Shown: positions 1 to 15,466, counted from the first letter of the whole stretch. The stretch: DNA of 63,990 nt, filler included, from Ferroacidibacillus organovorans (GCF_001642725.1; 5 parts of 5 records of this genome joined end to end with filler, not necessarily neighbours in it), one strand, 5' to 3'. Numbers and translations: made by a program. Notes: generated from the sequence alone by a model not told the origin.

Positions 1-1235
1 AAAATCCCTTCGTCCATTCTTGACGCAACACTGGGAACGCATCCGTAGTGAACTCCTTCGGGGAACCTATCAACCATCGCCCGTACGTCGAGTCGAAATC
101 CCGAAACCAGACGGTGGCGTGCGTTTGTTAGGTATTCCCACTGTGCTAGATCGCCTGATCCAGCAGGCTATTCAGCAAGTTCTCACACCTATCTTTGACC
201 CGGAATTCTCACCGTACAGTTATGGCTTTCGTCCGGGGTACAGCGCCCATGACGCGGTCAAACAAGCGCAGGGCTACATTGCGCAGGGATACCGCTGGGT
301 AGTCGACATGGACTTGGCACAGTTCTTTGACCGCGTGAACCACGACATGCTCATGGCGCGGGTCGCACGGAAGGTCGCGGATAAACACCTGCTCAAACTG
401 ATCCGAAAATATTTACAAGCAGGCGTCATGATTGGCGGAGTGTGTGTAGTATCAGAGGAAGGAACCCCGCAAGGAGGTCCCCTGAGTCCATTACTTTCGA
501 ACATCATGCTGGATGACTTGGACAAGGAGCTAATGCGCCGGGGACATCGATTTGCAAGGTACGCGGACGACAGTAACATTTATGTGCGGAGCCGTCGCGC
601 GGGAGAACGGGTGATGGAAAGTGTTACTGAATTTGTTGAAAAGCGACTAAAGCTCAAGGTGAACAGGGAGAAGAGCGCGGTAGATCGCCCGTGGAAAAGA
701 AAGTTCCTTGGCTTCTCATTCACGTGGCATCGCCAGCCTAAAATCCGGGTATCTCCGAAATCTCTCAAACGTTTCAAAGACAGAGTTCGAGATCTGACGA
801 AACGTAGTCGGGGTCAATCCATGGAGGCACGCGCTGCAAAGCTCAATGCGTATCTACGTGGGTGGAGTGGATATTACCGTCTGGCCGAAACGAGGAGTAT
901 ATTCGCGAATTTGGATGAATGGGTACGCCGGAGACTACGGATGTGCCTGTTGAAGCAATGGAAGAAGCCAAAAACGAAGCGAAGGAAACTCGTCGGACTT
1001 GGCATACCCGAGGATTGGGCCAGAATGATTAGTGGTTCCCGTAAGGGATACTGGCGGTTGGCCTTGACTCCTCAGATGAACAAAGTCCTTGGTCTTGCCT
1101 ACTGGCATGACCAAGGACTTGTGAGCTTGGTTGAACGATATGATGCACTTCGTTCCACAACATGAACCGCCGTATACCGAACGGTACGTACGGTGGTGTG
1201 GGAGGTCGGGAGCTAGCCGCTCCCTCCTACCCGAT
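1..1235 (+). mobile_element. Group II intron, class IIC (5' part outside window)
   Basis: RT/maturase ORF followed by domain V (GAACCGCCGTATACCGAACGGTACGTACGGTGGTGT, CGC triad) and domain VI ending CCTACCCGAT at 1235. Confidence 0.95.
20..1165 (+). CDS. ltrA: Group II intron reverse transcriptase/maturase (N-terminus outside window)
   Basis: IPKPDGGVRLLGIPTVLDR, GTPQGGPLSPLL and YADD motifs, domain X; no endonuclease domain; frame open to window edge. Confidence 0.97.
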   Translation: MTQHWERIRSELLRGTYQPSPVRRVEIPKPDGGVRLLGIPTVLDRLIQQAIQQVLTPIFDPEFSPYSYGFRPGYSAHDAVKQAQGYIAQGYRWVVDMDLAQFFDRVNHDMLMARVARKVADKHLLKLIRKYLQAGVMIGGVCVVSEEGTPQGGPLSPLLSNIMLDDLDKELMRRGHRFARYADDSNIYVRSRRAGERVMESVTEFVEKRLKLKVNREKSAVDRPWKRKFLGFSFTWHRQPKIRVSPKSLKRFKDRVRDLTKRSRGQSMEARAAKLNAYLRGWSGYYRLAETRSIFANLDEWVRRRLRMCLLKQWKKPKTKRRKLVGLGIPEDWARMISGSRKGYWRLALTPQMNKVLGLAYWHDQGLVSLVERYDALRSTT

Positions 1236-1571
1236 TTCTTCCCGCATAACAACACTACTCGAATGCATATCGGACACCAGGTTAAATAGGGTAGTAGAAT
1301 ACGAATGCAGAGTTCATTTTGAACCTGTCTGTTTCAAAAAGTGAACTTATACAGATGGTACAGATCGGAAATGAACTGATCATAGAAAATATACATTTTC
1401 ATGACATTTTCGTTGAAGTTATGAAGAATTCGGTCGTTTGGGTGAAAAATCATCATGTTTTCTTGCGGTTTATTCATAGAATAGATGAAAGTGTTACAGG
1501 TATGTGATATAGTTAGTTCGTCTGAAGAGAGGGAAGATGTTTATTTCCCAAGAAAGTGAGGGGAGTCATGG

Positions 1572-2105
1572 ATGAAACAGACAAGAAAACGGCGTCTGTT
1601 CATAGGGGTTGCAATGGCGGGTGCTTTCATGCTCGCAGGATGTGGTGTCGTCAATGGCAATGCTTCGTCGATTCTTTCATTCAATTCAAGTGCCAAGACA
1701 GTAACGTTGAATCTGGCTGGCGGATTGAATACGAATAACGACTCGATGAACCTCGACGGGTACTCCCAGGGGCAAATGACGGTCACTGTACCTGTAGGGT
1801 ACAAAGTAAAGGTCGAATTTGTGAATGACGGTGGTATCCCGATGGATCTCGCTGTATACACGATGAACGACCAACTCGCGTTCCCGGGTGCAGGAGACAG
1901 CGTTACGGCAATTCAAGGCAACGCATCAGCAGGTGTCATTCCTGGTCAGTCGACGAGTTTTACATTTACGGCGAGTCAGCCAGGGAATTATCAACTCGCC
2001 AACCTGTTGGATCGAGTAACAGGACACGGCCAGTTTGATTTCGGAATGTGGGCGCACTTTAATGTATCCTCTACAGCGACCCAACCGAGCATTACGCTTT
2101 CGTAA
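1572..2105 (+). CDS. Sulfocyanin-like cupredoxin-fold lipoprotein lacking canonical type-1 Cu ligands
   Basis: Lipobox LAGC; sulfocyanin-like motifs NLDGYSQGQMTVTVPVG, GVIPGQS, PGNY...GH...GMW; no Cys in the C-terminal loop. Confidence 0.75.
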   Translation: MKQTRKRRLFIGVAMAGAFMLAGCGVVNGNASSILSFNSSAKTVTLNLAGGLNTNNDSMNLDGYSQGQMTVTVPVGYKVKVEFVNDGGIPMDLAVYTMNDQLAFPGAGDSVTAIQGNASAGVIPGQSTSFTFTASQPGNYQLANLLDRVTGHGQFDFGMWAHFNVSSTATQPSITLS

Positions 2106-2160
2106 AAGAAGCTTGAGAAAGCGCTTTCGAATATAGGTTTAGCGATGGGAGGATTAGGGC

Positions 2161-2796
2161 GTGGCAAACGAGGAACCGCAAGAAAAGAAAAAGGTCGAAG
2201 TGGACTGGAGTCGCCGCCAATTTTTGATTGGCACGGGAGCACTCACGGTGGTTGGACTCGGCGCGATGTTTTTGAATGAACCTGTCGCGGCAGCCGTTCG
2301 CTCCGTTTTTGGCCAGCAACCGGAGTCAGGGCCGATCACGGTATTACAGGGCGATTATTTTTACATTCCAAACTACATGACCTGGCGCGTAGGCGATCAG
2401 ATTAGTATGACCATTCATAACACGAGTACGACACACTTCCATGAAATGCAGATTGGACGCGGCTTCAATACGATGCCCACCGCGCTGCAGACCATTCGCA
2501 CGCAGTTTGCGGAAGACTTTTGGAAGGGTGTGCCCGTCACGATTACGGCGGCGCAAGGAATTGATAACTTTGTAACGAATGAGGCGAAAATCTCCTCGGA
2601 CGTACACCCCACGCCTTGGCTATTAACCCAGCCTGGCAATGGTGGCTTTAGCCCAACGATGAAACCGGGTGGACAGATCACACTTAGCTTCACAGTTCCC
2701 AATAAACCTGGTATCTGGCACTACGCGTGTTTTGTCCAAGGGTACATGCACTGGCTTGCAGGAATGCGCGGTACGATTAATATTTTACCGGCCTGA
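2161..2796 (+). CDS. Tat-exported cupredoxin, AcoP/Cup-like
   Basis: SRRQFL twin-arginine signal; His in HEMQIG; C-terminal VPNKPGIWHYACFVQGYMHWLAGMRGTINILPA (Cys-His-Met type-1 Cu site) resembles A. ferrooxidans AcoP as recalled. Confidence 0.85.
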   Translation: MANEEPQEKKKVEVDWSRRQFLIGTGALTVVGLGAMFLNEPVAAAVRSVFGQQPESGPITVLQGDYFYIPNYMTWRVGDQISMTIHNTSTTHFHEMQIGRGFNTMPTALQTIRTQFAEDFWKGVPVTITAAQGIDNFVTNEAKISSDVHPTPWLLTQPGNGGFSPTMKPGGQITLSFTVPNKPGIWHYACFVQGYMHWLAGMRGTINILPA

Positions 2797-2851
2797 TTTT
2801 GTGAATTAGCTTTAATTCTAGCAATCACGGAGTGGAAGGAGGAACACCTGA

Positions 2852-3655
2852 ATGTCAGACGTTGTCCTGTTTGGTATTTTGTGGGTTATTCTCACGATTT
2901 TGGGCGAAATCGGCGTCAGCTTGTGGGGTCATAACATGTACTACTATATGGCTTCCACACAGGCTATCGAGGGCAATCATGCTGCTATCTTTCTAATGAT
3001 TTTCTTGACGCCGATCTTCATGTTTGTTGTTCTCATGCTCTTCTTTGTTCCTTTTCGGTTTCGGGCTAAAGATGGTGACCGCAAAGTTAAAGCGGCGACA
3101 TTCAAGACGAATCGTACCTTTATCTCGATCTGGGTTACCGTATCGGTTTGTGTGAACGTGCTATTTTTTATCCATCCGACCGCATCGGCAGCCGAAATGA
3201 TGTTCCAAGAAGCAAACCCTGCAAACCAGCAAAACACGTTGATCGTCGACGTTGTGGCGCGCCAGTGGCAGTGGTATTTCAGCTACCCGCAGTACGGTGT
3301 CACCAACACGGTGAATGCAAACGGTTTTAACGATCTCTATCTTCCGGTTGGTCGTAAAGTGGAGTTTGTACTTCGCTCCTATGATCCTAACCATACGTAT
3401 GATCCGAACCTTGACGTGGTTCACGATCTGTGGATCCCTGCGTTCGGGATTAAAGAGGACGTCATTCCTGGCGAAACGCGTTTCATGTATGTGACGCCAA
3501 ACGTGATTACTTCTTTTGAAAAGAACCCGATGGTTCGCGTGCAGTGTGCAGAGGTTTGCGGTCCAGGCCATCCCTACATGTGGGCTCCTGTACATGTCGT
3601 CTCCTCATCGAACTTTGCGACGTGGATCGCACAACAGAAAAAACAAAATGGTTAA
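2852..3655 (+). CDS. coxB: Heme-copper oxidase subunit II (CuA)
   Basis: RQWQWYFSYP, DVVHDLWIP and CAEVCGPGHPYM CuA motifs; about 3 N-terminal TM segments; no fused cytochrome c. Confidence 0.95.
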   Translation: MSDVVLFGILWVILTILGEIGVSLWGHNMYYYMASTQAIEGNHAAIFLMIFLTPIFMFVVLMLFFVPFRFRAKDGDRKVKAATFKTNRTFISIWVTVSVCVNVLFFIHPTASAAEMMFQEANPANQQNTLIVDVVARQWQWYFSYPQYGVTNTVNANGFNDLYLPVGRKVEFVLRSYDPNHTYDPNLDVVHDLWIPAFGIKEDVIPGETRFMYVTPNVITSFEKNPMVRVQCAEVCGPGHPYMWAPVHVVSSSNFATWIAQQKKQNG

Positions 3656-3681
3656 GTTGACCTAAGAAGGGGGTTTGAGGA

Positions 3682-5568
3682 ATGAGCACACTCGAACTGA
3701 GACCTGACATTTCGCCAGTGCCACAGGTCGTGAAATCGAAGCGAATGCCGCCTGTCATTCGCGGCATCTTGTGGTCGGCAATCGGATTTTTAGTCATTAA
3801 CACACTGATCAGCTACGTCTTAGATCCGCGGTATGGACACCCGTTCATTACTCAAGTCTCTATTACGTTCGGCTGGTTTGCAGCGATGGTCGGCTGGGTG
3901 CTGGGTGTTGGTGCGTGGGAAGGCGCTGTTCTTCCAGCCTTTGGTCATCACGGCACACTCTACACAGCTCCCGGCTGGAAACGATTTTTTGAATATAGCA
4001 CGGAGCATAAAGTGATCGGTCTGCAGTACATCGGTTCGTCGGCAGGTGGGTTCTTTATCGCAGGGTTAGCCGCCATGTTGATGCGCCTTGAACTGATGAA
4101 TAACAGCATGTGGCTCTTTAACTATCCACAACAGTACCTGACAACCGTTGGCATTCACGGAACGATCATGATGTTTTCCGTCGGTACGGTTGCTCTTGTC
4201 GGGGGCCTTGGAAACTACTTGGTTCCGCTGATGATCGGATCGAATACGAGCGCATTCCCGCGTATGTCAGGGATCAGCGTGTTGCTTGTACCGTTTGGCA
4301 TTGTGACGGTCGCGCTTAGTCCACTGCTCGGCTATTGGTCGACGGGCTGGCGTGGATACGAGCCGCTCGCGTCGCAAGATCCGTCAGGGATTCTCTTTTA
4401 CTACCTCGGAGTTTTTGCCTTGACGCTATCCTCACTGCTCGTGTCGATCAACTTGACTGCGACAGTGATCTTCAAACGGGCGCCTGGTATGACGTGGGGT
4501 CGCTTGCCGATGTTTGCTTGGGGGATCACCACGGTTAGCCTTTTGAACATCATCTGGCTGCCAGAGATTCAATTGACGTTCGTCATGAGTCTTGTCAATC
4601 GACTTGTGCCGCTTCCGCTCTTCACGGCGACAGGGAGTCCTTTGACCTATATGGAACTCTTCTGGCTGTTTGGACATCCAGAAGTGTATATCGTCGTCGT
4701 TCCGGCGCTCGCGCTGTGGCAGGAAATTATTCCTGTCATGACAAGGAAACCGCTGTTTGCTAGACAGTGGGGCGTTATTGGTCTGATTTTCGTTATGATG
4801 TTGAGCGGTTTCGTTTGGGCTCACCACATGTTTACGAACATGCGTAACGTTGAAATGATGCCGTTCTCCTTCTTCACAGAGATGATTTCGATTCCGACTG
4901 GGTTTGCGTATCTGGTGGCTCTCGGAACGCTCTGGCGAGGCCGTTTGAAGTTCAATACGGTTAGCTTGCTCGTCCTCATGAGTATGTTTAACTTCTTGAT
5001 TGGCGGAATGACGGGCGTGTTCCTTGCCGACCCGATCATCAACCTGCAGGCGCATGACACATTCTTCGTCGTCGGTCACTTCCACTATACGATCATCGGC
5101 GGTATGGTGTTCTCGTGGCTCGCCGCAATGTATTACTGGCTTCCGAAAATGTCCGGGCGTATGTACAATGAGCGATTGGGTAAGATTGGTGCGATTTGGA
5201 TCTTCCTTGCGTTCAACCTGACGTTCTCACAGTTTTTCCTACTCGGATTACACGGTATGAACCGCTGGGTTTCCGTTTACCCTTCGTACCTCCAGCCAAT
5301 GAACTTTGAGACGTCAATCTTTGCCTTCCTGCTCGGTCTCGGTTTCCTGTTTCATCTGGTGCACATTTGGTGGGCATGGCGCGCAGGCCAAAAAGCGGAA
5401 GGCAACCCTTGGGAATCAAAATCTGTGGAGTGGATTACAGCGTCTCCTCCGGCAGAAGAAAGCTTTCCTGTTATTCCGCGCATCGTGAGTAGCACCTACA
5501 CGTATGACAACGATGAGCCTGCGGTAATTATTCCTTCAGACGGGAAACGGGTCGCGACGACATCGTAA
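3682..5568 (+). CDS. coxA: Heme-copper oxidase subunit I (Acidithiobacillus CoxA-like)
   Basis: IHG, GHPEVY, WAHH and GHFH ligand motifs; extra N-terminal helices. Confidence 0.97.
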   Translation: MSTLELRPDISPVPQVVKSKRMPPVIRGILWSAIGFLVINTLISYVLDPRYGHPFITQVSITFGWFAAMVGWVLGVGAWEGAVLPAFGHHGTLYTAPGWKRFFEYSTEHKVIGLQYIGSSAGGFFIAGLAAMLMRLELMNNSMWLFNYPQQYLTTVGIHGTIMMFSVGTVALVGGLGNYLVPLMIGSNTSAFPRMSGISVLLVPFGIVTVALSPLLGYWSTGWRGYEPLASQDPSGILFYYLGVFALTLSSLLVSINLTATVIFKRAPGMTWGRLPMFAWGITTVSLLNIIWLPEIQLTFVMSLVNRLVPLPLFTATGSPLTYMELFWLFGHPEVYIVVVPALALWQEIIPVMTRKPLFARQWGVIGLIFVMMLSGFVWAHHMFTNMRNVEMMPFSFFTEMISIPTGFAYLVALGTLWRGRLKFNTVSLLVLMSMFNFLIGGMTGVFLADPIINLQAHDTFFVVGHFHYTIIGGMVFSWLAAMYYWLPKMSGRMYNERLGKIGAIWIFLAFNLTFSQFFLLGLHGMNRWVSVYPSYLQPMNFETSIFAFLLGLGFLFHLVHIWWAWRAGQKAEGNPWESKSVEWITASPPAEESFPVIPRIVSSTYTYDNDEPAVIIPSDGKRVATTS

Positions 5569-5581
5569 AGGAGGGGTCATT

Positions 5582-6151
5582 TTGTCAAGCCACGTTAAAT
5601 CCTCACGCACGCTTAACGCGGAGGAGCGTATGGCATTAAACACATCGCGGGGCGGTTTTACGATTCTGATCGCGAGTCAGATCGTGCCATTTGTGATGTT
5701 GGTTAACCTGCGCTACATTCTTTCGGGATCCTATGTATCGTCAGGCCTTGATCAGGCGACAGGCGCTGTGTTTACCATCCTTTTCATCATCAGTGCGATC
5801 ACTGCATATGCGGGCATTCAGGCGACCAATCGCTCTGACAGCAAGGCGTCTGCTCGCATGAGTGTTCTCACGATGGTACTGGGCTGGATCGCCGTCATTA
5901 TGATGAGCTATCAATTCTGGATGCACGCGTTTCAGACAGATGGCCGTTTTGGTGAAGGTTACCTTGTTACGATCGGTGCCTTTGTAATCTACTTTATTGC
6001 GTCGCTCGTAGGACTTCTTTCGGGAAAGATGAGAGCGAGCCGCGTCGGCATTGATGACAGTAACCGCTTCAGCATTGGCGCCAGCTTCAAGTTTTGGATT
6101 TTCTTGCAACTGATGTGGGTCGTACTCTACGTGGTTTACTACTTTATTTAA
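5582..6151 (+). CDS. coxC: Heme-copper oxidase subunit III (short form)
   Basis: 5 TM helices; C-terminal FWIFLQLMWVVLYVVYY like the subunit III end; follows subunit I. Confidence 0.85.
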   Translation: MSSHVKSSRTLNAEERMALNTSRGGFTILIASQIVPFVMLVNLRYILSGSYVSSGLDQATGAVFTILFIISAITAYAGIQATNRSDSKASARMSVLTMVLGWIAVIMMSYQFWMHAFQTDGRFGEGYLVTIGAFVIYFIASLVGLLSGKMRASRVGIDDSNRFSIGASFKFWIFLQLMWVVLYVVYYFI

Positions 6152-6163
6152 GGAGGGATTGGC

Positions 6164-6364
6164 GTGGGCGGATTTTTTCCTTCTTTTCCTTTCTATGTCC
6201 CTGACAGTCCGGGAACACCCCTTTGGTGGGATATCTCGTTCTGGCTGTTCCAGTTAGTCGTCATGTCGGCTCTTTTGCTCACGCTTCGCCGTTGGGCGAT
6301 TCGTGCAGATCTCGATCGCGAAGAGGCTTACCAAGAGAGTCTTCGCACCCCTGAGAAATCCTGA
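6164..6364 (+). CDS. Small single-TM protein, putative oxidase subunit IV (CoxD-like)
   Basis: 66 aa, strong RBS AAGGAGG, one TM helix, last gene before the terminator. Confidence 0.6.
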   Translation: MGGFFPSFPFYVPDSPGTPLWWDISFWLFQLVVMSALLLTLRRWAIRADLDREEAYQESLRTPEKS

Positions 6365-6375
6365 GTAGTGAAAAT

Positions 6376-6406
6376 GCCCTCTTGCGTCTCGCAGGAGGGC
6401 TCTTTT
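6376..6406 (+). terminator. Intrinsic terminator of cupredoxin-cox operon
   Basis: GCCCTCTTGCG-tct-CGCAGGAGGGC hairpin followed by TCTTTT. Confidence 0.75.
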
Positions 6407-6469
6407 CCTCGTAACTGTCTTCGGATCCTCTTGCATTGACGCAATAAACGAAGAAAGGAGCGCTGCCGA

Positions 6470-7651
6470 ATGGACATGCACGATTTAAACAATACGCAAA
6501 TTTTATCCGTCTATTATTCAAGTTTGATGATTGTGGTATGGATCCTGTTTTTTACGATCTTTACCGTTTCATTCATGACATTCATTTTTAAGTGGGTTGG
6601 GCAACAAGCAGATGAAATGGATCTAAAGCAAAACCCCACAGTTTTAAAAGGGGGCAGACGTGTTCCGCTGCGGCTGATTCCTGGCGGTGGAAATAAGGTA
6701 TTCCAAGCGCGTCACCGTCTGCAAGTGGGTTGGTACATTCTCTGGTATGGACTCGGCGCGATCTGGTTGCTCGACGGTCTGCTTCAAGCGCAGCCCGATA
6801 TGGCGCTCCCGCTTTTTGTGAAACTCGTTTTTCAACCACTCGCGAATGCGCAACCGAGTTGGCTCAAGGCTGTCATGGATCTGGGGATTTATCTCTGGAA
6901 TCAAAATACCGTCACAAGCAATATTGGTGCCGTTCTCATTCAGGTTGGAATTGGAGTTGCTATGCTTACGGGACGCAGTCGTCTCTGGGGCAAGATCGCT
7001 GTTTACGTGTCTCTTCTCTGGTCACTTTCGATCTGGGTCTTCGGTGAAGGAATGGGGAACCTCTTTTCGCACCCCAGTTATTTTAATGGTACACCAGGCG
7101 CTGCACTCATCTATTCCGTGCTATCCTTGTTTCTTATTCTTCCGAAGAAATACTGGTTGGAGGGTCACATTGCACGCTGGTCGTTGCGGGGTTTAAGTAT
7201 CATGTGGATCGTGCTTGCGCTTGCTGAGCTTCTCCCGAAAAATGGCTACTATAGTCCGAACGGACTTTTTTCAATCATCGCCACGCTCTCGAATATGCCG
7301 CAACCGCAATTTATTTCTTCATCCCTGGAATCCATTGCGTCTGCTATTTTTAGGGCGCCAATCGTTTGGAATGTCGGTTTCTCGATGATTATGTTAATGC
7401 TTGGCGTCATGGGATTGTTCGTGCGATCACGCAAAGTGTTTTTAACGCTCACGATGGCATGGTTGGCATTCTCTTGGTGGGCTGGCCAAGACTTTGGCTT
7501 CTTTGGCGGCATGGGTACTGATTTGAATATGTCCCCGCTGCTTGCGCTGATGTATGTTGCGTGTTGGTGGTATGGAGAGGCCAGCGGTGATGGACATTTG
7601 CTCGTACGCTCTGTGAATAATAATGAATCTCTGCGCGCGAACCGCGGATGA
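6470..7651 (+). CDS. Polytopic membrane protein with two DoxX/DoxD-like repeats
   Basis: Repeated units GLGAIWLLDGLLQAQP...QP..W...IWVFGEGMG and GLSIMWIVLALAELLP...QP..F...WWAGQDFG. Confidence 0.55.
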   Translation: MDMHDLNNTQILSVYYSSLMIVVWILFFTIFTVSFMTFIFKWVGQQADEMDLKQNPTVLKGGRRVPLRLIPGGGNKVFQARHRLQVGWYILWYGLGAIWLLDGLLQAQPDMALPLFVKLVFQPLANAQPSWLKAVMDLGIYLWNQNTVTSNIGAVLIQVGIGVAMLTGRSRLWGKIAVYVSLLWSLSIWVFGEGMGNLFSHPSYFNGTPGAALIYSVLSLFLILPKKYWLEGHIARWSLRGLSIMWIVLALAELLPKNGYYSPNGLFSIIATLSNMPQPQFISSSLESIASAIFRAPIVWNVGFSMIMLMLGVMGLFVRSRKVFLTLTMAWLAFSWWAGQDFGFFGGMGTDLNMSPLLALMYVACWWYGEASGDGHLLVRSVNNNESLRANRG

Positions 7652-7727
7652 CATTGCGAAGCGCAACGTTACCCAGTATGATCAGGTAGAGTTGTGTGGA
7701 CAAGTGAGCAGAGTGAGGGTGACAAAG

Positions 7728-8195
7728 TTGGCAGCGTATTGGGCATTATTCAATGAAATGCTGATGATTATCAGTGCAGTGATTGCTTTGTTTGGATGGC
7801 GTCAAATTCGTAGGAAGAATCGCGAGGTTCATCGCAAATTGATGATGACATCCTCTCTTTTCGGGGCAGGCTTTTTTATCAGTTACGCAGTGGCGACATT
7901 GGCGATTGGGGATACATCCTTCGGCGGTCCACAATCACTTTCTGTCCCGTACCAGATTTTTCTGCAGATTCACGTCATGCTGGCGACGATTGCTGCTGTC
8001 ATGGGTGTGGTTACGATTGTTCTCGCTTTGCGCAGTCGTTTTTCCACGCATCGACGCATTGGTCCGTGGACGGTTATTTTCTGGTTGGTGTCTGCCGCCA
8101 CCGGTTTAGTTGTTTATCTGATGCTGTTTGTGATCTTTCCTCCTGGGCCTACTATTAAAAACTTACTGCATGTGCTTGTCTCGTCAAAATCGTAG
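7728..8195 (+). CDS. DUF420 family (CtaM/YozB-like) oxidase assembly protein
   Basis: GWRQIRRKNREVHRKLM, HVMLA, HRRIGPWT motifs; TTG start after GAGG RBS. Confidence 0.8.
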   Translation: MAAYWALFNEMLMIISAVIALFGWRQIRRKNREVHRKLMMTSSLFGAGFFISYAVATLAIGDTSFGGPQSLSVPYQIFLQIHVMLATIAAVMGVVTIVLALRSRFSTHRRIGPWTVIFWLVSAATGLVVYLMLFVIFPPGPTIKNLLHVLVSSKS

Positions 8196-8206
8196 GGGGC
8201 TTTCTT

Positions 8207-8554
8207 GTGAAATGGGCAACATTTGCGTTTGGTATCGTTAGTGTGCTGCTTACAGTCATGACGGGTCTCATTGTTCAGGGTTCGTTTCTCGTTCATGTCG
8301 CATCGTCGGGAACGACACATGAGAAGTTGGCGGTGATCGTTTATGGTGCGGCGGCCATGGCGCTACTCGGTTCGATTATGGCGCTTTTTCGGCCGCGCTT
8401 TGCCGCGTGGTGTTTTGTGATCGCATCGGTTGTCGGTGTATTTGGCGCGTTTGACCTGTGGATGTTTCCGGGTTCGGTGCTGTTTGTCTCGATGATCATG
8501 GCGTTTGTGCAACGCACGGAGCAGACGACGGCGGGTGCAGACAAAAAGGCTTAG
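8207..8554 (+). CDS. Hypothetical membrane protein
   Basis: 115 aa, about 4 hydrophobic segments, co-directional and closely spaced. Confidence 0.6.
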   Translation: MKWATFAFGIVSVLLTVMTGLIVQGSFLVHVASSGTTHEKLAVIVYGAAAMALLGSIMALFRPRFAAWCFVIASVVGVFGAFDLWMFPGSVLFVSMIMAFVQRTEQTTAGADKKA

Positions 8555-8573
8555 TGAGTGCCGAGTGACGTGT

Positions 8574-8603
8574 ACGGGAGCGAACCTTCGCTTCCGTTTT
8601 TTT
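8574..8603 (+). terminator. Intrinsic terminator
   Basis: ACGGGAGCGAA-cc-TTCGCTTCCGT hairpin plus T run. Confidence 0.8.
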
Positions 8604-8701
8604 GTGTGTGAATCTTAATCTACGGCCTAGTTGAACGTCCATATTTATGCGAAGGAGTCATGATATGATCATAAGGTAGTGGTGGTACTACTGCGAGAGG
8701 T

Positions 8702-9298
8702 GTGATTTTAGTGTTATCGATGAATGATATCCAGGCGCCGCGCTTGGCTGCGACGGTCATTCTGGTCGATGCGTGGAACGCACAGCCGTTTCGTGTCCTT
8801 TTGATCAAACGTCCGAGTCAGCTTCGCGTTTTACCAGGATTTTGGGTGTTTCCTGGGGGGCGAGTCGAGATGGAAGATGGGCTTGGATCGGTCGATGAAA
8901 TGGATGCACTCTTGCATGCGGCCATTCGCGAAACAAGGGAAGAAGTGGGGATTTTACTCGAGAAACAAGCGCTCCTATGGTTCGGGAGGCGAGTTACTCC
9001 AAACGTTATGAAACATCGTTTTGACACGCATTTTTTTATTGCGCGTATCCCCCACGGAACCGAGTTTTGCTTGTCTGTCGAAGAAGCTGAAGAAGCGCAG
9101 TGGTGTACACCGGATGAAGCGTTTCAAAACGCGGAGAATGGGACGTGGCTCGTCGCGCCTCCGACGCGTGACGCATTGCGCACACTATCCTCTTTGAGTG
9201 CCGACGCCCTCTTTAACGGTGGCGTGATGCAGGCACAAGTCGAGAATCGCGATGAGATTGATCAGTTTGTGAAATCCATTCAGATGCCGCTGGCTTGA
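8702..9298 (+). CDS. NUDIX hydrolase
   Basis: WVFPGGRVE...AAIRETREEVG Nudix box; RFDTHFF. Confidence 0.9.
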   Translation: MILVLSMNDIQAPRLAATVILVDAWNAQPFRVLLIKRPSQLRVLPGFWVFPGGRVEMEDGLGSVDEMDALLHAAIRETREEVGILLEKQALLWFGRRVTPNVMKHRFDTHFFIARIPHGTEFCLSVEEAEEAQWCTPDEAFQNAENGTWLVAPPTRDALRTLSSLSADALFNGGVMQAQVENRDEIDQFVKSIQMPLA

Positions 9299-10143
9299 TA
9301 CATGAGCACTTTTTTCGCGCGATCATAGTGACACGCGATCAGATTTTTCTCTGAGAGGTAGCTCAGATGGGCGCGCACGGTGGCGAGTGCCGCCCACATG
9401 TGGTTCCCTGCGATCGCTGAGCCGTAAAGGGTGGCAGCCAGTTCATGCGCGCTTTGCGGTTTACGGATGAGTTGATTGAGAATTTGTTCACTGCGCGCTT
9501 CGCGGCGCTTTAACATCGTCACAAAAAACGATGGTGTCGCCTCAATCGACTCTCCGTGACCGGGGAGTATGGTTTTTGCAGATAAGGCATGCAGTCGAGT
9601 CAATGATTCATAAAAATGGGCGAGATGGCCGTCGGGTGGCCCAATCCAGACAGTTCCGGCAGACGTGGCGTTGTCTCCGGCGATAAGCGTCTGTGTTGTT
9701 GCCTCATACCAGGCGAGGTGACCGTGCGTGTGCCCCGGCGTCTCTATGGTTTCTACACGGTATGCGTTGAGGTGAATCATGTCACCTGCGCAAACGTCAC
9801 GCCATGAAATCGCCGCAAGACGTTTGCGCAGAGACACTCCTTTGTCCTCGATCGACTGACGCTCGAGTGGGTGAATGTACACGTTGCAGCAGTAAGTCTC
9901 AGCGAGTGTGAGCAGACCGCCTGCGTGGTCTTTGTGGGCATGTGTCACGAGAATGCCTTGGATGGTCACTTTCTTTGCGCGGATCCACGCGATGAGCGTG
10001 TGCAGGCTTGCGGGTTCGTCATACCCCGTATCAAAGAGCAGCGCACTTCGTCCATCTGTCATGAGATGAACATTGACGGTTGATTCGAGCGAACTGGCGC
10101 CGTTTAGTTCGAGAGATTGGAACGAGAGTGCCAGTGTGTTCAC
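9280..10143 (-). CDS. MBL-fold metallo-hydrolase (LACTB2-like)
   Basis: THAHKDH, TPGHT, GD and PGHG motifs; C-terminal winged-helix-like tail. Confidence 0.9.
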   Translation of the reverse strand: MNTLALSFQSLELNGASSLESTVNVHLMTDGRSALLFDTGYDEPASLHTLIAWIRAKKVTIQGILVTHAHKDHAGGLLTLAETYCCNVYIHPLERQSIEDKGVSLRKRLAAISWRDVCAGDMIHLNAYRVETIETPGHTHGHLAWYEATTQTLIAGDNATSAGTVWIGPPDGHLAHFYESLTRLHALSAKTILPGHGESIEATPSFFVTMLKRREARSEQILNQLIRKPQSAHELAATLYGSAIAGNHMWAALATVRAHLSYLSEKNLIACHYDRAKKVLMYQASGI

Positions 10144-10215
10144 CCACTTTCTTTACAAACTTTTTTTGTGCAAGAATGTACCCCTGTGTCATGCAAATCA
10201 AGGGAGGGTCTACTC

Positions 10216-10797
10216 ATGAAACTATACACGAAAACGGGAGATAAGGGCGAAACAAGCCTGATCTACGGCCGCAGAATTGCTAAAGATGATCTGCGTGTAG
10301 AAACCTACGGTACACTCGATGAAGCGAACAGTGTGTTGGGACTCGCCGCACAGGCATTGCGTGAGGATGAATCGTGTGCCGATCTTTTGCGCATTGTCGC
10401 GCGAATTCAGCGCGATCTGTTCGATGTCGGGCGCGATCTTGCGACGCCAGAAGACAAACAGGGAGAGCCGTTTGTCACAGCAGACCACGTGTCGACCCTG
10501 GAGGGGGTGATCGATCGCCTGGACGCGCAAGTTCCGCCTCTGACACAGTTTATTTTGCCGGGCGGTGCGCTTGCCGCGGCGCACTTACACCATGCGCGTA
10601 CGATTGTACGGCGTGCGGAGCGACTGGTCGTTACATTATCTCGTGAACAAAAGGTGTCTTTGAACATTGGAATCTATCTCAATCGGCTGTCTGATTTGCT
10701 GTTTATCACGGCGCGCACAGTCAACCATCGCCTTGGTGTCACAGAGCCACACGTGGATTTCAACGCCGCCGCAGAGTCGCTTGAAGAGGGGGTGTGA
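10216..10797 (+). CDS. pduO: ATP:cob(I)alamin adenosyltransferase (PduO type)
   Basis: MKLYTKTGDKGETSL, YGTLDEANS, FILPGG, RRAER, YLNRLSD motifs. Confidence 0.93.
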   Translation: MKLYTKTGDKGETSLIYGRRIAKDDLRVETYGTLDEANSVLGLAAQALREDESCADLLRIVARIQRDLFDVGRDLATPEDKQGEPFVTADHVSTLEGVIDRLDAQVPPLTQFILPGGALAAAHLHHARTIVRRAERLVVTLSREQKVSLNIGIYLNRLSDLLFITARTVNHRLGVTEPHVDFNAAAESLEEGV

Positions 10798-11597
10798 CTG
10801 TGTTTGATTGGCAGGACATTCGGGGTGTTCTTCTTGATTTGGATGGAACACTTTTTCGTGGGGATATCGTATTGCCCGGCGCGATCGCGCTTATTGAGCA
10901 ATTGCGGCACGCTCAGATCCCCTTTCTCTATTGGACAAATAATTCGACGCGCACGCCAGAGCAGGTTGTCACTCATTTACAAGGGTTAGGCTTTAACGCC
11001 TCGGAAAACGAGGTTTACACCAGTTCACTGGCCGTTGCAGACGCACTTGCAGGCGTTCTCCCGCATGCTTCTGCGGTGTATGCGCTTGGTGAAGAAGGTC
11101 TTGTTGACGCGCTCCGTCGACGCAGCTTTCGCGTGTTGACCGAAGGCGGACGCGATGAGCCTGTGGCTGCAGTTGCGGTGGGGCTTGACCGAGAGGTCAC
11201 CTATGCGCGCTTTGCTCAAGCGATGCAGCACCTTATGAGTCCGGATGTACTCTTTTACGCGACGAACCAGGATCGCGCGTTACCGCACGGGGATCACTTC
11301 CTGCCTGGAGCAGGCGCGGGGATCTCCTTTTTAGAGACGTGCACAGCTCGACGAGCGGTGGTGGTGGGCAAACCGCAAGCTACCTTTGTGCTTGCTGCGT
11401 GTGACAGGCTCGCTGTAGCACCTAGACACACGCTGATTGTCGGGGACAATGCAGAGACGGATGTGGCTGCCGCGAAACAGGCTGGAGCTATGGCTGTGTG
11501 GGTGACGACGGGTGTGTCACACGTGCGTGCAGAGCGGGGAACGCGAACCATTTCAGCGCTGACGGAGCTTCTTCCGGTCTTTGGCGCGCGAAAATAA
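10794..11597 (+). CDS. HAD-IIA hydrolase (NagD/YutF-like)
   Basis: DLDGTL, TNNS, GKP, GDNAETD motifs. Confidence 0.9.
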
Positions 11598-11604
11598 AAC
11601 TCTA

Positions 11605-11668
11605 TTGACGATACTATATGTTGTGCATATAATGGTCATGGACATCCTTATTACACTACATATGGTAT
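11605..11668 (+). promoter_or_regulatory. SigA promoter with tandem NrdR boxes
   Basis: TTGACG-17-TATAAT (11605-11633); NrdR-like boxes ATACTATATGTTGTGC (11611) and ACACTACATATGGTAT (11653), 42 bp apart. Confidence 0.85.
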
Positions 11669-11679
11669 GGGGTGATCTC

Positions 11680-12189
11680 GTGAAGTGCCCGTATTGTCAG
11701 GCGCATGACTCGCGCGTTGTCGATTCTCGCGTGAGTGATGAACAGTCGTGGGTGCGCAGGCGCCGGGAGTGTGTCTCTTGCCAAAAACGCTTCACGACCT
11801 ATGAGCGGGTGGAGTTGACGCCGCTGATTGTCGTGAAGAAAGATCGCGTGCGCGAAGAGTTTAACCGGGATAAGGTGCGCCGCGGCGTGGTTCGAGCGTG
11901 CGAGAAGAGACCGATCACGCTTGATCAAATGGAGCAACTCGTCGATGACGTGGAGCGTGTGATCCGCGCAGAGTTTGAGCGTGAGGTTCCTTCGTGCGAA
12001 GTGGGGGAGCGCGTCATGAATGCGCTCAAGGCGCTTGATGGCGTGGCGTATGTTCGCTTCGCAAGTGTGTATCGGGAGTTTCGCGACGTGGAGTCGTTTG
12101 CAAAAGAGGTTTTGGCATTACTTCATACTTCCGGCGAGGGAAAGCATGCGGTGCCGGGAGAACAGGAATCGGAGGATGAACATTTGTGA
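11680..12189 (+). CDS. nrdR: Transcriptional repressor NrdR
   Basis: KCPYC...VVDSR...RRRREC..C.KRFTTYE; ATP-cone; [13 protein letters not shown]. Confidence 0.97.
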
Positions 12190-15100: not shown

Positions 15101-15366
15101 CGGTCAGACTTCGGTTGGATTTGGTGAACGACGCATCACGAGTGTTCCTGATGCGATTGCGAAATCGCTGATTGAACACGCGGAGACGTTTCCGCTGCGC
15201 CGTATCTCGCAGGCGACAAGTCGTGATGACGCGACAGAACAGGGTGCTTCGCACAACCACGCGGCAGCGCCGCTTTCGTCGCTGCGGGCGGCCGAGATCG
15301 CGCGGGATTGGTGCCCAGAGTGTCACCAACACTCGCTGATTCGTCAGGGTGGCTGTTCGGAGTGCG
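12186..15366 (+). CDS. nrdJ: Class II (B12-dependent) ribonucleotide reductase with internal duplication; C-terminus cut by gap
   Basis: [54 protein letters not shown]-like domain and CxxC zinc ribbon. Confidence 0.95.
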
Positions 15367-15466
15367 NNNNNNNNNNNNNNNNNNNNNNNNNNNNNNNNNN
15401 NNNNNNNNNNTTAATTAATTAANNNNNNNNNNNNNNNNNNNNNNNNNNNNNNNNNNNNNNNNNNNN
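15367..15466. other. Artificial contig linker
   Basis: 100-bp N run with central TTAATTAATTAA (stops in all frames). Confidence 0.97.

Follow-up and report, generated by a model that had tools for sequence, protein, structure and literature searches.

An AcoP-linked heme-copper oxidase operon in Ferroacidibacillus organovorans: a candidate terminal branch of Fe(II) oxidation

Introduction

Which electrons does an AcoP-type oxidase operon receive in a Gram-positive acidophile, and is such an operon a new kind of system? The question is raised by a locus in a 63,990-nucleotide stretch of DNA from Ferroacidibacillus organovorans (GCF_001642725.1; five records joined end to end, filler included), hereafter referred to as the window. 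An earlier note on this DNA read the locus as an Acidithiobacillus-type operon and a candidate Fe(II)-oxidation module. The resemblance has already been published: AcoP homologues have been placed in Sulfobacillus cytochrome c oxidase clusters (Roger 2014, PMC4059628), a sulfocyanin-cox cluster has been raised with Sulfobacillus as the sole iron oxidiser (Christel 2018, PMC6315122), and Cup was grouped with Alicyclobacillus in a 2023 publication. As printed in PMC6315122, genes Sulth_0449-0453 (cox3, coxI, coxII, SoxE) were 1.7 to 3.6 log2-fold up where Sulfobacillus was the sole iron oxidiser.

Results

Six genes and a terminator-like hairpin

Six open reading frames lie on the + strand between positions 1572 and 6364, all in the same direction and with spacings of 12 to 55 bases. 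The features of the locus are:

1572..2105, + strand, SoxE-like lipoprotein, 177 aa (Pfam SoxE, E 5.6e-15)
2161..2796, + strand, AcoP-type cupredoxin, 211 aa (phmmer against PDB AcoP 7z3b; no Pfam family)
2852..3655, + strand, CoxB, oxidase subunit II, 267 aa (Pfam COX2, 1.6e-08)
3682..5568, + strand, CoxA, oxidase subunit I, 628 aa (Pfam COX1, 2e-109)
5582..6151, + strand, CoxC, short subunit III, 189 aa (Pfam COX3, 2.3e-05)
6164..6364, + strand, single-helix subunit in the CoxD position, 66 aa (no Pfam match; one TM-like segment)
6376..6400, + strand, intrinsic-terminator-like hairpin at the operon end (11-pair stem, 8 G-C, T-rich tail)
6470..8554, + strand, co-directional downstream genes: 393-aa membrane protein, DUF420 protein, 115-aa membrane protein
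7623-8195, + strand, the DUF420 protein (E 6.4e-35)
8574-8597, second terminator-like site (hairpin scan)

The reading frames, their order and the closing hairpin are all present as the earlier note described them, and the CxxCH motif, said there to be missing, occurs in 0/6 of the products. The stem at 6376-6400 is followed by TCTTTTCCTC. Since the hairpin scan returned 9 terminator-like sites against 8.6 expected in shuffles, this hairpin counts through its position and strength rather than through number. A promoter scan gave 9 sites against 7.8 expected, and no promoter is claimed.

The genes at 6470..8554 may have a part in oxidase biogenesis. Of the 78 loci, 11 have a relative of the 393-aa protein downstream and 1 has the DUF420 protein; an Atlas model of the 393-aa protein resembles the membrane part of SCO1/SenC-fused proteins (TM 0.79), which we treat as a lead only.

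A true AcoP homologue and a ligand-poor SoxE-like lipoprotein

Two cupredoxins had been proposed at the head of the operon. The 211-aa protein matches the solved AcoP structure 7z3b_A (phmmer, PDB; E 5.4e-20, 74.9 bits) over stretches 60-129 and 162-211, which take in both conserved regions. It begins with a twin-arginine-like N-terminus (WSRRQFL) and contains one hydrophobic segment. Its predicted copper ligands—His94 and Cys190-x6-His197-x4-Met202—correspond to H85 and C159-x6-H166-x4-M171 of AcoP, with the Cys-x6-His-x4-Met spacing printed in PMC4059628. His94 is invariant (22/22 rows), and all 19 rows that extend to the C-terminus contain the C-terminal motif (three rows are truncated). 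We conclude that this protein is a true AcoP homologue that retains all four predicted copper ligands. A word-indexed search with it returned Bacillota relatives only (84/272 candidates) and no Acidithiobacillus; the Acidithiobacillus link comes from the PDB search and a pattern scan. In the window, a gap of 55 bases separates the acoP-like gene from coxB, and AcoP is followed by CoxB in 60/62 Bacillota and 11/11 Acidithiobacillia loci (the two misses are contig ends).

For the 177-aa protein, the cupredoxin fold was borne out and the copper site was not. The protein has a lipobox (LAGC, Cys24), scores 55.6 bits against Pfam SoxE (cut-off 21) and 53.2 bits against the NCBIfam sulfocyanin equivalog, below the cut-off of 168.4. 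An alignment-based model (pLDDT 81.7), preferred to a single-sequence fold (pLDDT 42.7), has rusticyanin as its nearest solved fold (1rcy, E 1.9e-06). The mature part contains no Cys and Met91 takes the place of the first His ligand; His152 and Met159 are retained, and the type-1 set of His, Cys, His and Met is incomplete. Across the 25 operon-linked copies, the mature Cys is found in 0, the first His in 1 and the second His in 10, whereas the wider SoxE family has C..PGH...GM in 116/150 representatives (117 counted, one match lying within a signal peptide) and His at the first ligand column in 121/152 rows. With Cys and the first His missing, the SoxE-like lipoprotein is, judged by its sequence, ruled out as a blue copper carrier of the classic kind. 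Its gene lies upstream in only 23/62 Bacillota loci and is therefore taken to be dispensable for the module; we infer a structural or docking role for the ligand-less subunit.

These observations bear on a further proposal of the earlier note, namely that membrane-anchored copper proteins replace Cyc2, Cyc1 and rusticyanin, with both cupredoxin-fold proteins acting jointly as carriers. Both are predicted to be exported and anchored (by lipobox and Tat-like signal, respectively), the fold of the SoxE-like protein is closest to rusticyanin, and "sulfocyanin" transcripts are described as up with iron in Sulfobacillus in the relevant parts of PMC4062416, PMC6315122 and PMC8065656. The AcoP half of the proposal has its copper site, but the SoxE-like half lacks a type-1 site in every operon-linked copy and is encoded at a minority of the Bacillota loci; we consider joint replacement by the two proteins highly unlikely. 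A complex prediction combining the CoxB soluble domain with the AcoP-like and SoxE-like domains scored 0.00, a value that is uninformative in either direction.

A complete oxidase with altered proton channels

As previously claimed, the 267-aa CoxB (TIGR02866, 115.5 bits) has three TM-like segments—here and throughout from a simple hydropathy scan—and no cytochrome c domain. The ligand set of a CuA-type subunit II (His, Cys-x-Glu-x-Cys, His, Met) is complete: His191, Cys232, Cys236, His240 and Met243 are invariant in 26/26 rows, and Glu234 is also present. The protein is 35% identical to A. ferrivorans CoxB over the full length (E 2e-56). CoxC has 5 TM-like segments and follows CoxA in 55/62 Bacillota loci, and the 66-aa subunit follows CoxC in 54/62. 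The latter weakly resembles a 64-aa ORF 3' of A. ferrivorans coxC (25% identity, E 7e-04 in a single comparison).

Two extra N-terminal TM-like segments of CoxA (25-43 and 59-77) precede its COX1 domain, the first residue of which is 112. CoxA retains the six His that coordinate heme a, heme a3 and CuB, together with the cross-linked Tyr in HPEVY, and its HG, GHPEVY, WAHHMF and GHFHY motifs align with Qox, Cyo and CtaD rows. Two channel residues, whose roles (K-channel Lys, D-channel Asp/Asn) we take to be the usual ones, are replaced: (i) the K-channel Lys (PTGFAYL versus PTGVKIF), and (ii) the D-channel Asp (GSNT; GSNTSAFPRMSG versus GARDVAFPYLNA). Variants of both proton channels are described in deep-branching COX1 (PMC8239418).

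The completeness of this oxidase weighs on whether the operon serves respiration at all. In 2015, Navarro reportedly proposed AcoP and rusticyanin as determinants of resistance to copper in Acidithiobacillus ferrooxidans (cited in PMC6803676), and the operon might by analogy serve copper homeostasis or resistance. However, its cupredoxin shares the operon with an oxidase in which all catalytic ligands are kept, and the copper genes recognisable in the host (an island of CsoR, CopA and two true type-1 cupredoxins) are found apart from the operon, on contig C28. We give this explanation almost no weight.

AcoP-linked CoxA proteins form one clade

The claim that the oxidase is unlike the usual Bacillus caa3 and qox enzymes could be examined by score and by phylogeny. 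CoxA scores 454.3 bits against TIGR02891 (CtaD_CoxA; cut-off 670.75), where a true CtaD scores 714.4 (L087); against the QoxB and CyoB equivalogs it reaches 318.6 (cut-off 1015.5) and 304.2 (cut-off 1020.35), respectively. Among solved structures it is closest to actinobacterial and Thermus CtaD (E 1e-92) and to aa3-600 of B. subtilis (E 7e-83), and it is 31 to 36% identical to Qox, Cyo and CtaD proteins of the same genomes. A careful tree of 35 rows set 25 CoxA proteins from AcoP loci against ten other oxidases encoded in the same genomes, nine Qox/Cyo and one CtaD. All 25 fall on one side of a 100/100 branch that recurs in 100% of 200 bootstrap trees, and a quick tree of 59 rows gives the same split between AcoP-linked and other oxidases. 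The distinction from ordinary CtaD and Qox was thus upheld by both scores and tree.

The clade, to which the rus-operon oxidase belongs, extends over Bacillota, Actinomycetota, Chloroflexi and Deinococci; Acidithiobacillus forms one branch of it. The label "Acidithiobacillus-type" may point in the wrong direction. The careful tree joins Bacillota to Actinomycetota and Deinococci (85/64) and not to Acidithiobacillus; a sister relation to Acidithiobacillus, seen in the quick tree (84), was lost in the careful one and is not claimed.

Comparison with known systems

The reference for the rus operon (cyc2-cyc1-acoP/cup-coxB-coxA-coxC-coxD-rus) was A. ferrivorans locus L079, a true rus operon with a diheme cytochrome c, AcoP, CoxBAC and rusticyanin (227 bits). 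It shares with the window operon (i) the order AcoP-CoxB-CoxA-CoxC-small subunit, (ii) AcoP-like proteins that are 32 to 35% identical and have the same C-x6-H-x4-M site, (iii) CoxA proteins of 628 aa each that are 41 to 43% identical, with a two-helix N-terminal extension and K-channel Lys loss in common, (iv) CoxB proteins with complete CuA sites and an additional N-terminal helix, at the 35% identity given above, and (v) membership of one CoxA clade (100/100). The motifs that the earlier note had listed (GxGxWE, PLFARxW, SIPTGFxYL, VPNKPGxWxYxCFxQ) are, 4/4, shared with the Acidithiobacillus sequences compared or with the solved AcoP. The proposed gene order, too, is widely kept: the five-gene order occurs in 54/62 Bacillota loci, and AcoP-CoxB-CoxA in 10/11 Acidithiobacillia loci.

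The differences are equally clear. Cyc2, the diheme cyc1 (c4) and rusticyanin are all present in A. ferrivorans, whereas none is in or beside the window operon, and the products of the latter gave no Pfam or NCBIfam match to rusticyanin. AcoP of the rus operon is described with an N-terminal anchor, in place of which the window protein has a Tat-like signal. The window operon also has the ligand-less rusticyanin-fold lipoprotein upstream and a 10-residue insertion ahead of the CuA His in CoxB, and its host has a single membrane and no cytochrome c family that we could find.

Three further comparisons place the operon. Sulfobacillus loci (for example L027, L030 and L047) have the same order, and Sulth_0449-0453, from a genome outside the set of loci compared, has the same make-up (subunit 3, I, II, one unlisted gene, SoxE), matched by printed description only; Sulfobacillus genomes are reported to have cytochrome c genes, whereas none was found in the window host. 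The archaeal sulfocyanin-fed oxidases (Sulfolobus SoxM, Ferroplasma) likewise have a cupredoxin as proposed CuA donor at an acid-exposed single membrane, and the first product of the window operon matches Pfam SoxE; unlike them, however, the window operon has a SoxE-like protein without the Cys and first His ligand, no Rieske or cytochrome b genes, and a CoxA that is not fused to subunit III. This archaeal comparison draws partly on general background. Other details of it are from parts of PMC10654088. Finally, Bacillus caa3 (CtaCDEF) and aa3-600 (QoxABCD) share with CoxA the superfamily, the heme and CuB ligands and HPEVY, but CoxB differs from caa3 in having no cytochrome c domain, and from Qox in having CuA.

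Electron carriers of the host

The draft host genome is 96.8% complete and gave 0 matches to cytochrome c families PF00034 and PF13442 and to ResB; across the order, ResB was absent from 0/64 genomes. A genome-wide CxxCH count (132 ORFs with one motif each among the ORFs listed) is at chance level and uninformative. No host contig has matches to both Rieske and cytochrome b, and no Rieske gene lies beside a cytochrome b gene. There are, however, two places where a cytochrome b6-like gene is paired with a gene for a 341 to 361-aa membrane protein (contigs C5 and C10), and these could connect quinol and oxidase through an unrecognised route. The host has three AcoP-type oxidase operons, one of them broken; its other oxidases are three, all Qox-type quinol oxidases.

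This gene content cuts both ways for an alternative in which the operon encodes a general acid-adapted terminal oxidase. Here, AcoP would mainly protect the exposed CuA at low pH, and electrons would come from heterotrophic respiration by an unrecognised route, such as the b6-like proteins, which are without a Rieske partner. Going by the description of the genus in PMC11123200, the host uses organic carbon for growth, and AcoP is named for sustaining oxidase activity at acid pH (as printed in PMC4059628 and PMC10804444). Against this, the three Qox enzymes are already available for heterotrophic respiration, and the searches for the two cytochrome c families, ResB and a recognisable bc complex gave the host no means of transfer from quinol to CuA.

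Distribution among iron oxidisers and others

The AcoP-like gene occurs in 19/64 genomes of the order. It is missing from all 16 genomes of the order's largest genus, which is assumed to include acidophiles, and this too argues against a general acid-adapted oxidase. Named carriers are mostly iron oxidisers, and those with the closest CoxA comprise the iron oxidisers Fodinisporobacter ferrooxydans, Sulfoacidibacillus, Ferroacidibacillus, Alicyclobacillus tolerans, Alicyclobacillus ferrooxydans and Sulfobacillus. Alicyclobacillus mengziensis S30H14 is the exception: it carries two full AcoP-type operons (L013 and L055), yet showed no Fe(II) oxidation in a test with medium adjusted to pH 4.0 (PMC9558579). 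The presence/absence check suggested by the earlier note hence came out mixed, as did its claim of an Fe(II)-oxidation module: the correlation with named iron oxidisers favours it, and A. mengziensis counts against it and for a general oxidase.

AcoP-like genes sit next to cox genes in Actinomycetota MAGs as well (Jiangellaceae and one other), and near cox genes in Chloroflexi and Deinococci. We know of nothing that ties these carriers to iron oxidation, and such pairs outside Bacillota and Acidithiobacillia again favour a general oxidase. The response of the Sulfobacillus counterpart to iron-oxidising conditions points the other way. Taken with the host gene content, we regard a general acid-adapted oxidase as rather unlikely, though a serious contender.

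In environmental data, contigs from DNA runs over 1100-8700 covered 30/30 bins with few differences in X5 and X6, and 19/30 bins in X7. Near-identical DNA therefore occurs in mine drainage and tailings metagenomes, and the coverage shows only that. The operon turned up in no RNA run; the one metatranscriptome compared matched only 1160-1209, the conserved end of a group II intron.

Discussion

The operon is a further example of the known clade of AcoP-linked oxidases, of which the rus-operon oxidase of Acidithiobacillus ferrooxidans is the best-studied member, and not a new type of system. Since the searches for cytochrome c families, for ResB and for a Rieske gene beside cytochrome b found none in the host, the reading we prefer is a cupredoxin-fed oxidase that is probably linked to Fe(II); we infer both AcoP as the entry point and Fe(II) as the donor. 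At a probability of roughly 60%, the operon encodes an AcoP-linked family-A heme-copper oxidase that, in this host, passes electrons from Fe(II) through the AcoP-like centre and CuA to O2. Fe(II) at the outer membrane face would give electrons to the AcoP-like copper centre, from which they would pass to CuA of CoxB, heme a, the heme a3-CuB site and O2, with the protons for O2 reduction being taken from the cytoplasm.

Published work on AcoP and on intact cells can be set beside this chain. As described in parts of PMC10804444 and PMC5982212, AcoP copurifies with the oxidase, maintains its activity at acid pH and is an electron acceptor for cytochrome c4; its potential is +566 mV. In the account given in PMC5143472, only a-type cytochromes were reduced by Fe(II) in intact Sulfobacillus and A. 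ferrooxydans cells.

The chain has an energetic cost at its first step. At low pH the Fe(III)/Fe(II) couple lies above the +566 mV of AcoP, and so a direct step from Fe(II) to AcoP would be uphill; no AcoP is known to take it. Tentatively, and as a proposal that may well prove wrong, we suggest that the host has the shortest aerobic iron-respiration chain so far put forward: one without cytochrome c, in which Fe(II) would reduce a Tat-exported, green AcoP-type cupredoxin that feeds the CuA of an altered-channel oxidase, and in which the "sulfocyanin" of Gram-positive acidophiles would be a lipoprotein free of copper, acting as a scaffold or in Fe(II) docking, rather than a blue copper carrier.

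Two points matter for the biology of these organisms. Firstly, the "sulfocyanin" genes adjoining these oxidases lack the copper-binding Cys, so that their use as markers of iron oxidation in genomes and metagenomes may mislead. Secondly, the terminal branch of Fe(II) electron uptake in Gram-positive acidophiles has its leading candidate in operons of this type. With three Qox oxidases, three AcoP-type operons (one broken) and no cytochrome c found, F. organovorans looks like a clean case, and its gene content makes the question of Fe(II) uptake directly testable.

An AcoP-type oxidase operon on contig C62

The host genome is a 3.03-Mb draft (96.8% complete), in which window positions 1–15366 form a single contig, C62. 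By genome lookup, positions 15367–63990 consist of N or of other contigs, so features past 15366 are not to be read as operon neighbours. The features of C62 discussed here are as follows.

2–1165 and 1165–1235, plus (operon) strand: group II intron, ending ~340 bases upstream of the operon
1572–6364, plus strand: six ORFs encoding a SoxE-like lipoprotein (177 aa), an AcoP-like protein (211 aa), CoxB (267 aa), CoxA (628 aa), CoxC (189 aa) and a 66-aa subunit
6376–6400: strong hairpin with a T-rich tail, 3' of the sixth ORF
6470–8554, plus strand: three membrane-protein genes past the terminator, encoding a 393-aa protein (no family), a DUF420 protein and a 115-aa protein

ORF calling places gaps of 12 to 55 bases between the six ORFs. 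Pfam assigns the first product to SoxE (E 5.6e-15), the third to COX2, the fourth to COX1 (2e-109) and the fifth to COX3, with no family for the 211-aa or 66-aa product; a CxxCH motif is found in none of the six. A simple hydropathy scan gives three TM-like segments in CoxB and two extra ones in CoxA, before the COX1 domain. The operon described in the earlier note—co-directional genes closed by a hairpin, with no CxxCH, a three-segment CoxB and an N-terminally extended CoxA—is thus borne out.

The intron carries a reverse transcriptase/maturase ORF (RVT_1 1.2e-41, GIIM 1.4e-25) truncated by the contig start, and an Rfam Intron_gpII match at 1165–1235 (45.7 bits). Metagenome contigs have only positions 1160–1209 of this region in common and diverge thereafter, as expected of a multi-copy element. 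The 393-aa protein encoded past the terminator has a downstream relative in 11 of 78 AcoP loci, and its Atlas model aligns with the membrane part of actinobacterial SCO1/SenC-fused proteins (TM 0.79); the modelled likeness provides a lead towards a role in supplying copper or assembling the oxidase.

An AcoP-like cupredoxin of 211 aa

Searched against all PDB chains, the 211-aa protein matches A. ferrooxidans AcoP best (7z3b, E 5.4e-20); the two aligned segments between them span both conserved regions. Copper nitrite reductase, the runner-up family, reaches an E of only ~1e-3. The protein contains His94 and Cys190-x6-His197-x4-Met202, a ligand spacing identical to that printed for AcoP (H85, C159-x6-H166-x4-M171; available text of PMC4059628). 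His94 is invariant in an alignment of 22 relatives, and the 19 rows that extend to the C-terminus all have the C-terminal motif. Sequence match and ligand spacing together uphold the identification of this cupredoxin as AcoP-like. The N-terminus of the 211-aa protein combines a W-S-R-R-Q-F-L stretch, invariant in the alignment, with one hydrophobic segment, and is predicted to be a twin-arginine export signal.

The operon-linked SoxE-like protein lacks the Cys ligand for copper

A lipoprotein signal (LAGC) marks the 177-aa product, whose alignment-based model (pLDDT 81.7) finds rusticyanin as the closest solved fold (E 1.9e-06, TM ~0.5). An exhaustive HMMER search gave 150 representatives, with the canonical C..PGH...GM motif in 116 (the raw count of 117 includes one match inside a signal peptide). 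The motif is missing from most of the closest representatives (P0206, P0208–P0211, P0213, P0215 and P0218, among others). At the position of the first ligand, 121 of 152 rows of the domain alignment have His but the window protein has Met; it retains the second His and Met columns.

We considered the operon-linked proteins as a set of 25: the window protein and 24 copies from the fetched loci, of which 23 immediately precede the AcoP-like gene. The lipobox Cys is present in all 25, and the mature part is free of Cys in each of them. Of the other ligands, one protein keeps the first His, 10 keep the second His and 22 keep the Met. A type-1 copper site is impossible without the thiolate, and the lack of any mature-part Cys therefore excludes such a site in these proteins. 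The earlier note had counted the first gene product as one of two copper proteins; judged by its sequence, this 'cupredoxin' is not a copper carrier. Published work, in the portions available, names these operon-linked genes sulfocyanin or blue copper proteins, and a literature search of such partial texts found no published statement of the ligand-less state.

CoxB and CoxA

CoxB keeps all CuA ligands, five of which are invariant in 26/26 rows, and is 35% identical to the A. ferrivorans rus-operon CoxB across its whole length. Bacillota CoxB has 10 inserted residues immediately ahead of the CuA His (SYDPNHTYDPNL here; window positions 3380–3420, CoxB residues ~177–188); both Acidithiobacillus rows of the alignment lack this insertion. 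CoxA conserves HPEVY and the histidine ligands of heme and CuB. The K-channel Lys is replaced (PTGFAYL) in every AcoP-linked CoxA aligned. At the D-channel position, Asp has given way to other residues in the window protein (GSNT), Acidithiobacillus (TRN) and Sulfobacillus (ARE); the rows for Jiangellaceae, Chloroflexi and Deinococci still have it. All AcoP-linked rows are extended at the N-terminus by ~100 residues that include two helices and a GW.LG.G.W motif. Extra N-terminal helices and K-/D-channel variants are already known from the deep-branching COX1 of iron oxidisers (PMC8239418, as far as its text is available).

Relatives, synteny and CoxA phylogeny

The AcoP-like alignment was used for a pattern scan of one genome per species (185,579 species), which returned 78 loci: 62 in Bacillota, 11 in Acidithiobacillia/Proteobacteria and five in other phyla.

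Gene order at AcoP-like loci (loci in which each gene follows AcoP, and in which a SoxE-like gene lies directly upstream; several Bacillota misses are loci cut by contig ends)
Bacillota (n=62): CoxB 60, CoxA 58, CoxC 55, 66-aa gene 54; SoxE-like upstream 23
Acidithiobacillia/Proteobacteria (n=11): CoxB 11, CoxA 10, CoxC 7, 66-aa gene 0; SoxE-like upstream 0
Other phyla (n=5): CoxB 2, CoxA 2, CoxC 0, 66-aa gene 0; SoxE-like upstream 0

Two of the loci in other phyla have AcoP-CoxB-CoxA; in a third the cox genes precede the AcoP-like gene, and in a fourth they lie ~6 kb from it. The comparison locus of A. ferrivorans has the canonical rus-operon make-up: a 504-aa ORF, a diheme cytochrome c, AcoP, CoxB, a 628-aa CoxA, CoxC, a 64-aa ORF and rusticyanin. 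By record name, AcoP-coxBAC lies on plasmids in Acidithiobacillus ferrianus MG (p1MG, locus L073) and A. ferruginosus CF3 (pCF3-2, locus L076), a location that fits lateral spread of the module.

As comparators for CoxA we took every COX1 match of the host and of five other operon-carrying genomes. A quick tree (59 rows, with 29 of 58 Bacillota rows and all 30 others retained) and a careful tree (35 rows) give the same split, with all CoxA from AcoP loci together on one side. The branch has support of 100/100 and appears in 100% of 200 bootstrap trees; opposite it lie one true CtaD (714 bits) and nine Qox-/Cyo-type subunits from the same genomes. Given this split, CoxA does not branch with ordinary CtaD or QoxB, and stands apart from them as the earlier note had proposed. 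Within the AcoP-linked clade, Bacillota are not placed with Acidithiobacillus; they join Actinomycetota and Deinococci, with weak support (85/64). The direction implied by calling the operon 'Acidithiobacillus-type' may be wrong. The available text of a 2023 network study (PMC10654088) likewise suggests an origin of the Acidithiobacillus cox cluster in Chloroflexi, Actinobacteria or Firmicutes, and groups Cup (AcoP) with Alicyclobacillus.

Possible electron donors in the host

Relevant loci elsewhere in the host genome (G000) are listed by contig.

C23, 3995–8900: second AcoP-type operon, also with a Cys-less SoxE-like gene upstream
C27, 1040–3392, and C39, 20829–22073: third AcoP-type operon, no SoxE-like gene
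C28, 16101–23775: copper island with a CsoR-like repressor, a CopA P-type ATPase and two membrane-anchored cupredoxins; SCO1-like gene nearby
C5, 84729–86425, and C10, 874–2467: two paralogous gene pairs, in each of which the gene for a four-helix cytochrome b6-like protein (204 and 213 aa) precedes one for a membrane protein of 341 to 361 aa and no family

The host thus has three AcoP-type operons, besides three Qox-type quinol oxidases (996 to 1011 bits against QoxB). In the third operon coxA is interrupted after ~250 residues, and transposase-like ORFs lie where it is broken (judged by eye, IS110-like on C27 and IS3-like on C39); from its sequence, this copy is probably inactive.

Cytochrom_C, Cytochrome_CBB3 and ResB have no match in the host draft genome (96.8% complete). 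ResB, of system II cytochrome c maturation, is found in 0/64 genomes of the order, with a positive B. subtilis control; this has to be reconciled with the 'cytochrome c genes' that FeGenie reports in two Alicyclobacillus species (PMC9558579). CtaA-like and SCO1-like genes are present, and cytochrome b and Rieske matches lie on separate contigs. By these searches, the host CuA oxidase is without a conventional donor, which would make the operon's own cupredoxin the obvious one.

The two C28 cupredoxins have a full type-1 site (GTYHYLCP.PGHA..GMYG) and are the only SoxE-family proteins in the genome whose ligands include Cys; they may serve as carriers in respiration or in resistance. Neither the C5 nor the C10 pair has an adjacent Rieske gene. 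Sulth_2730/2731 ('cytochrome b/b6 domain') are up in iron-oxidising Sulfobacillus, according to the accessible part of PMC6315122.

A possible link to iron oxidation

The earlier note proposed the operon as a candidate Fe(II)-oxidation module. Two paralogues in the host show 93% identity to proteins of Ferroacidibacillus organovorans. Ferroacidibacillus is described as a heterotrophic genus that both oxidises and reduces iron (PMC11123200, in part), and the closest named CoxA relatives come from iron oxidisers. In intact Sulfobacillus and A. ferrooxydans, only a-type cytochromes are reduced by Fe(II) (excerpts of PMC5143472), and the counterpart Sulfobacillus cluster, matched by description, is up when Sulfobacillus is the sole iron oxidiser (PMC6315122, Table 1, as available). 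Counted against the link are two such operons found by locus scan in A. mengziensis, for which Fe(II) oxidation was negative when tested (PMC9558579). In a Sulfoacidibacillus isolate, iron oxidation was predicted but did not occur (available portion of PMC13272565). AcoP-cox pairs are also present in lineages not known to have any connection with iron. In favour of the link, the AcoP-like gene is present within the order in 19/64 genomes and 11/26 genera, and in none of the 16 genomes of the largest genus.

The core comparison, the kinship of AcoP-linked oxidases in Gram-positive acidophiles, is already in print: Sulfobacillus AcoP homologues were placed inside cytochrome c oxidase clusters (Roger et al. 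2014, PMC4059628, in the text available), strain S0AB has a sulfocyanin-like gene clustered with 'cytochromes' (Vergara et al. 2022), and the 2023 network study ties Cup to Alicyclobacillus. Added here are (i) the view of a host in which no cytochrome c route to the AcoP-linked oxidase is seen, (ii) a clean member of the operon in a Ferroacidibacillus genome, (iii) a Tat-like signal predicted for the AcoP proteins of Bacillota, and (iv) the ligand-less nature of the operon-linked 'sulfocyanin'.
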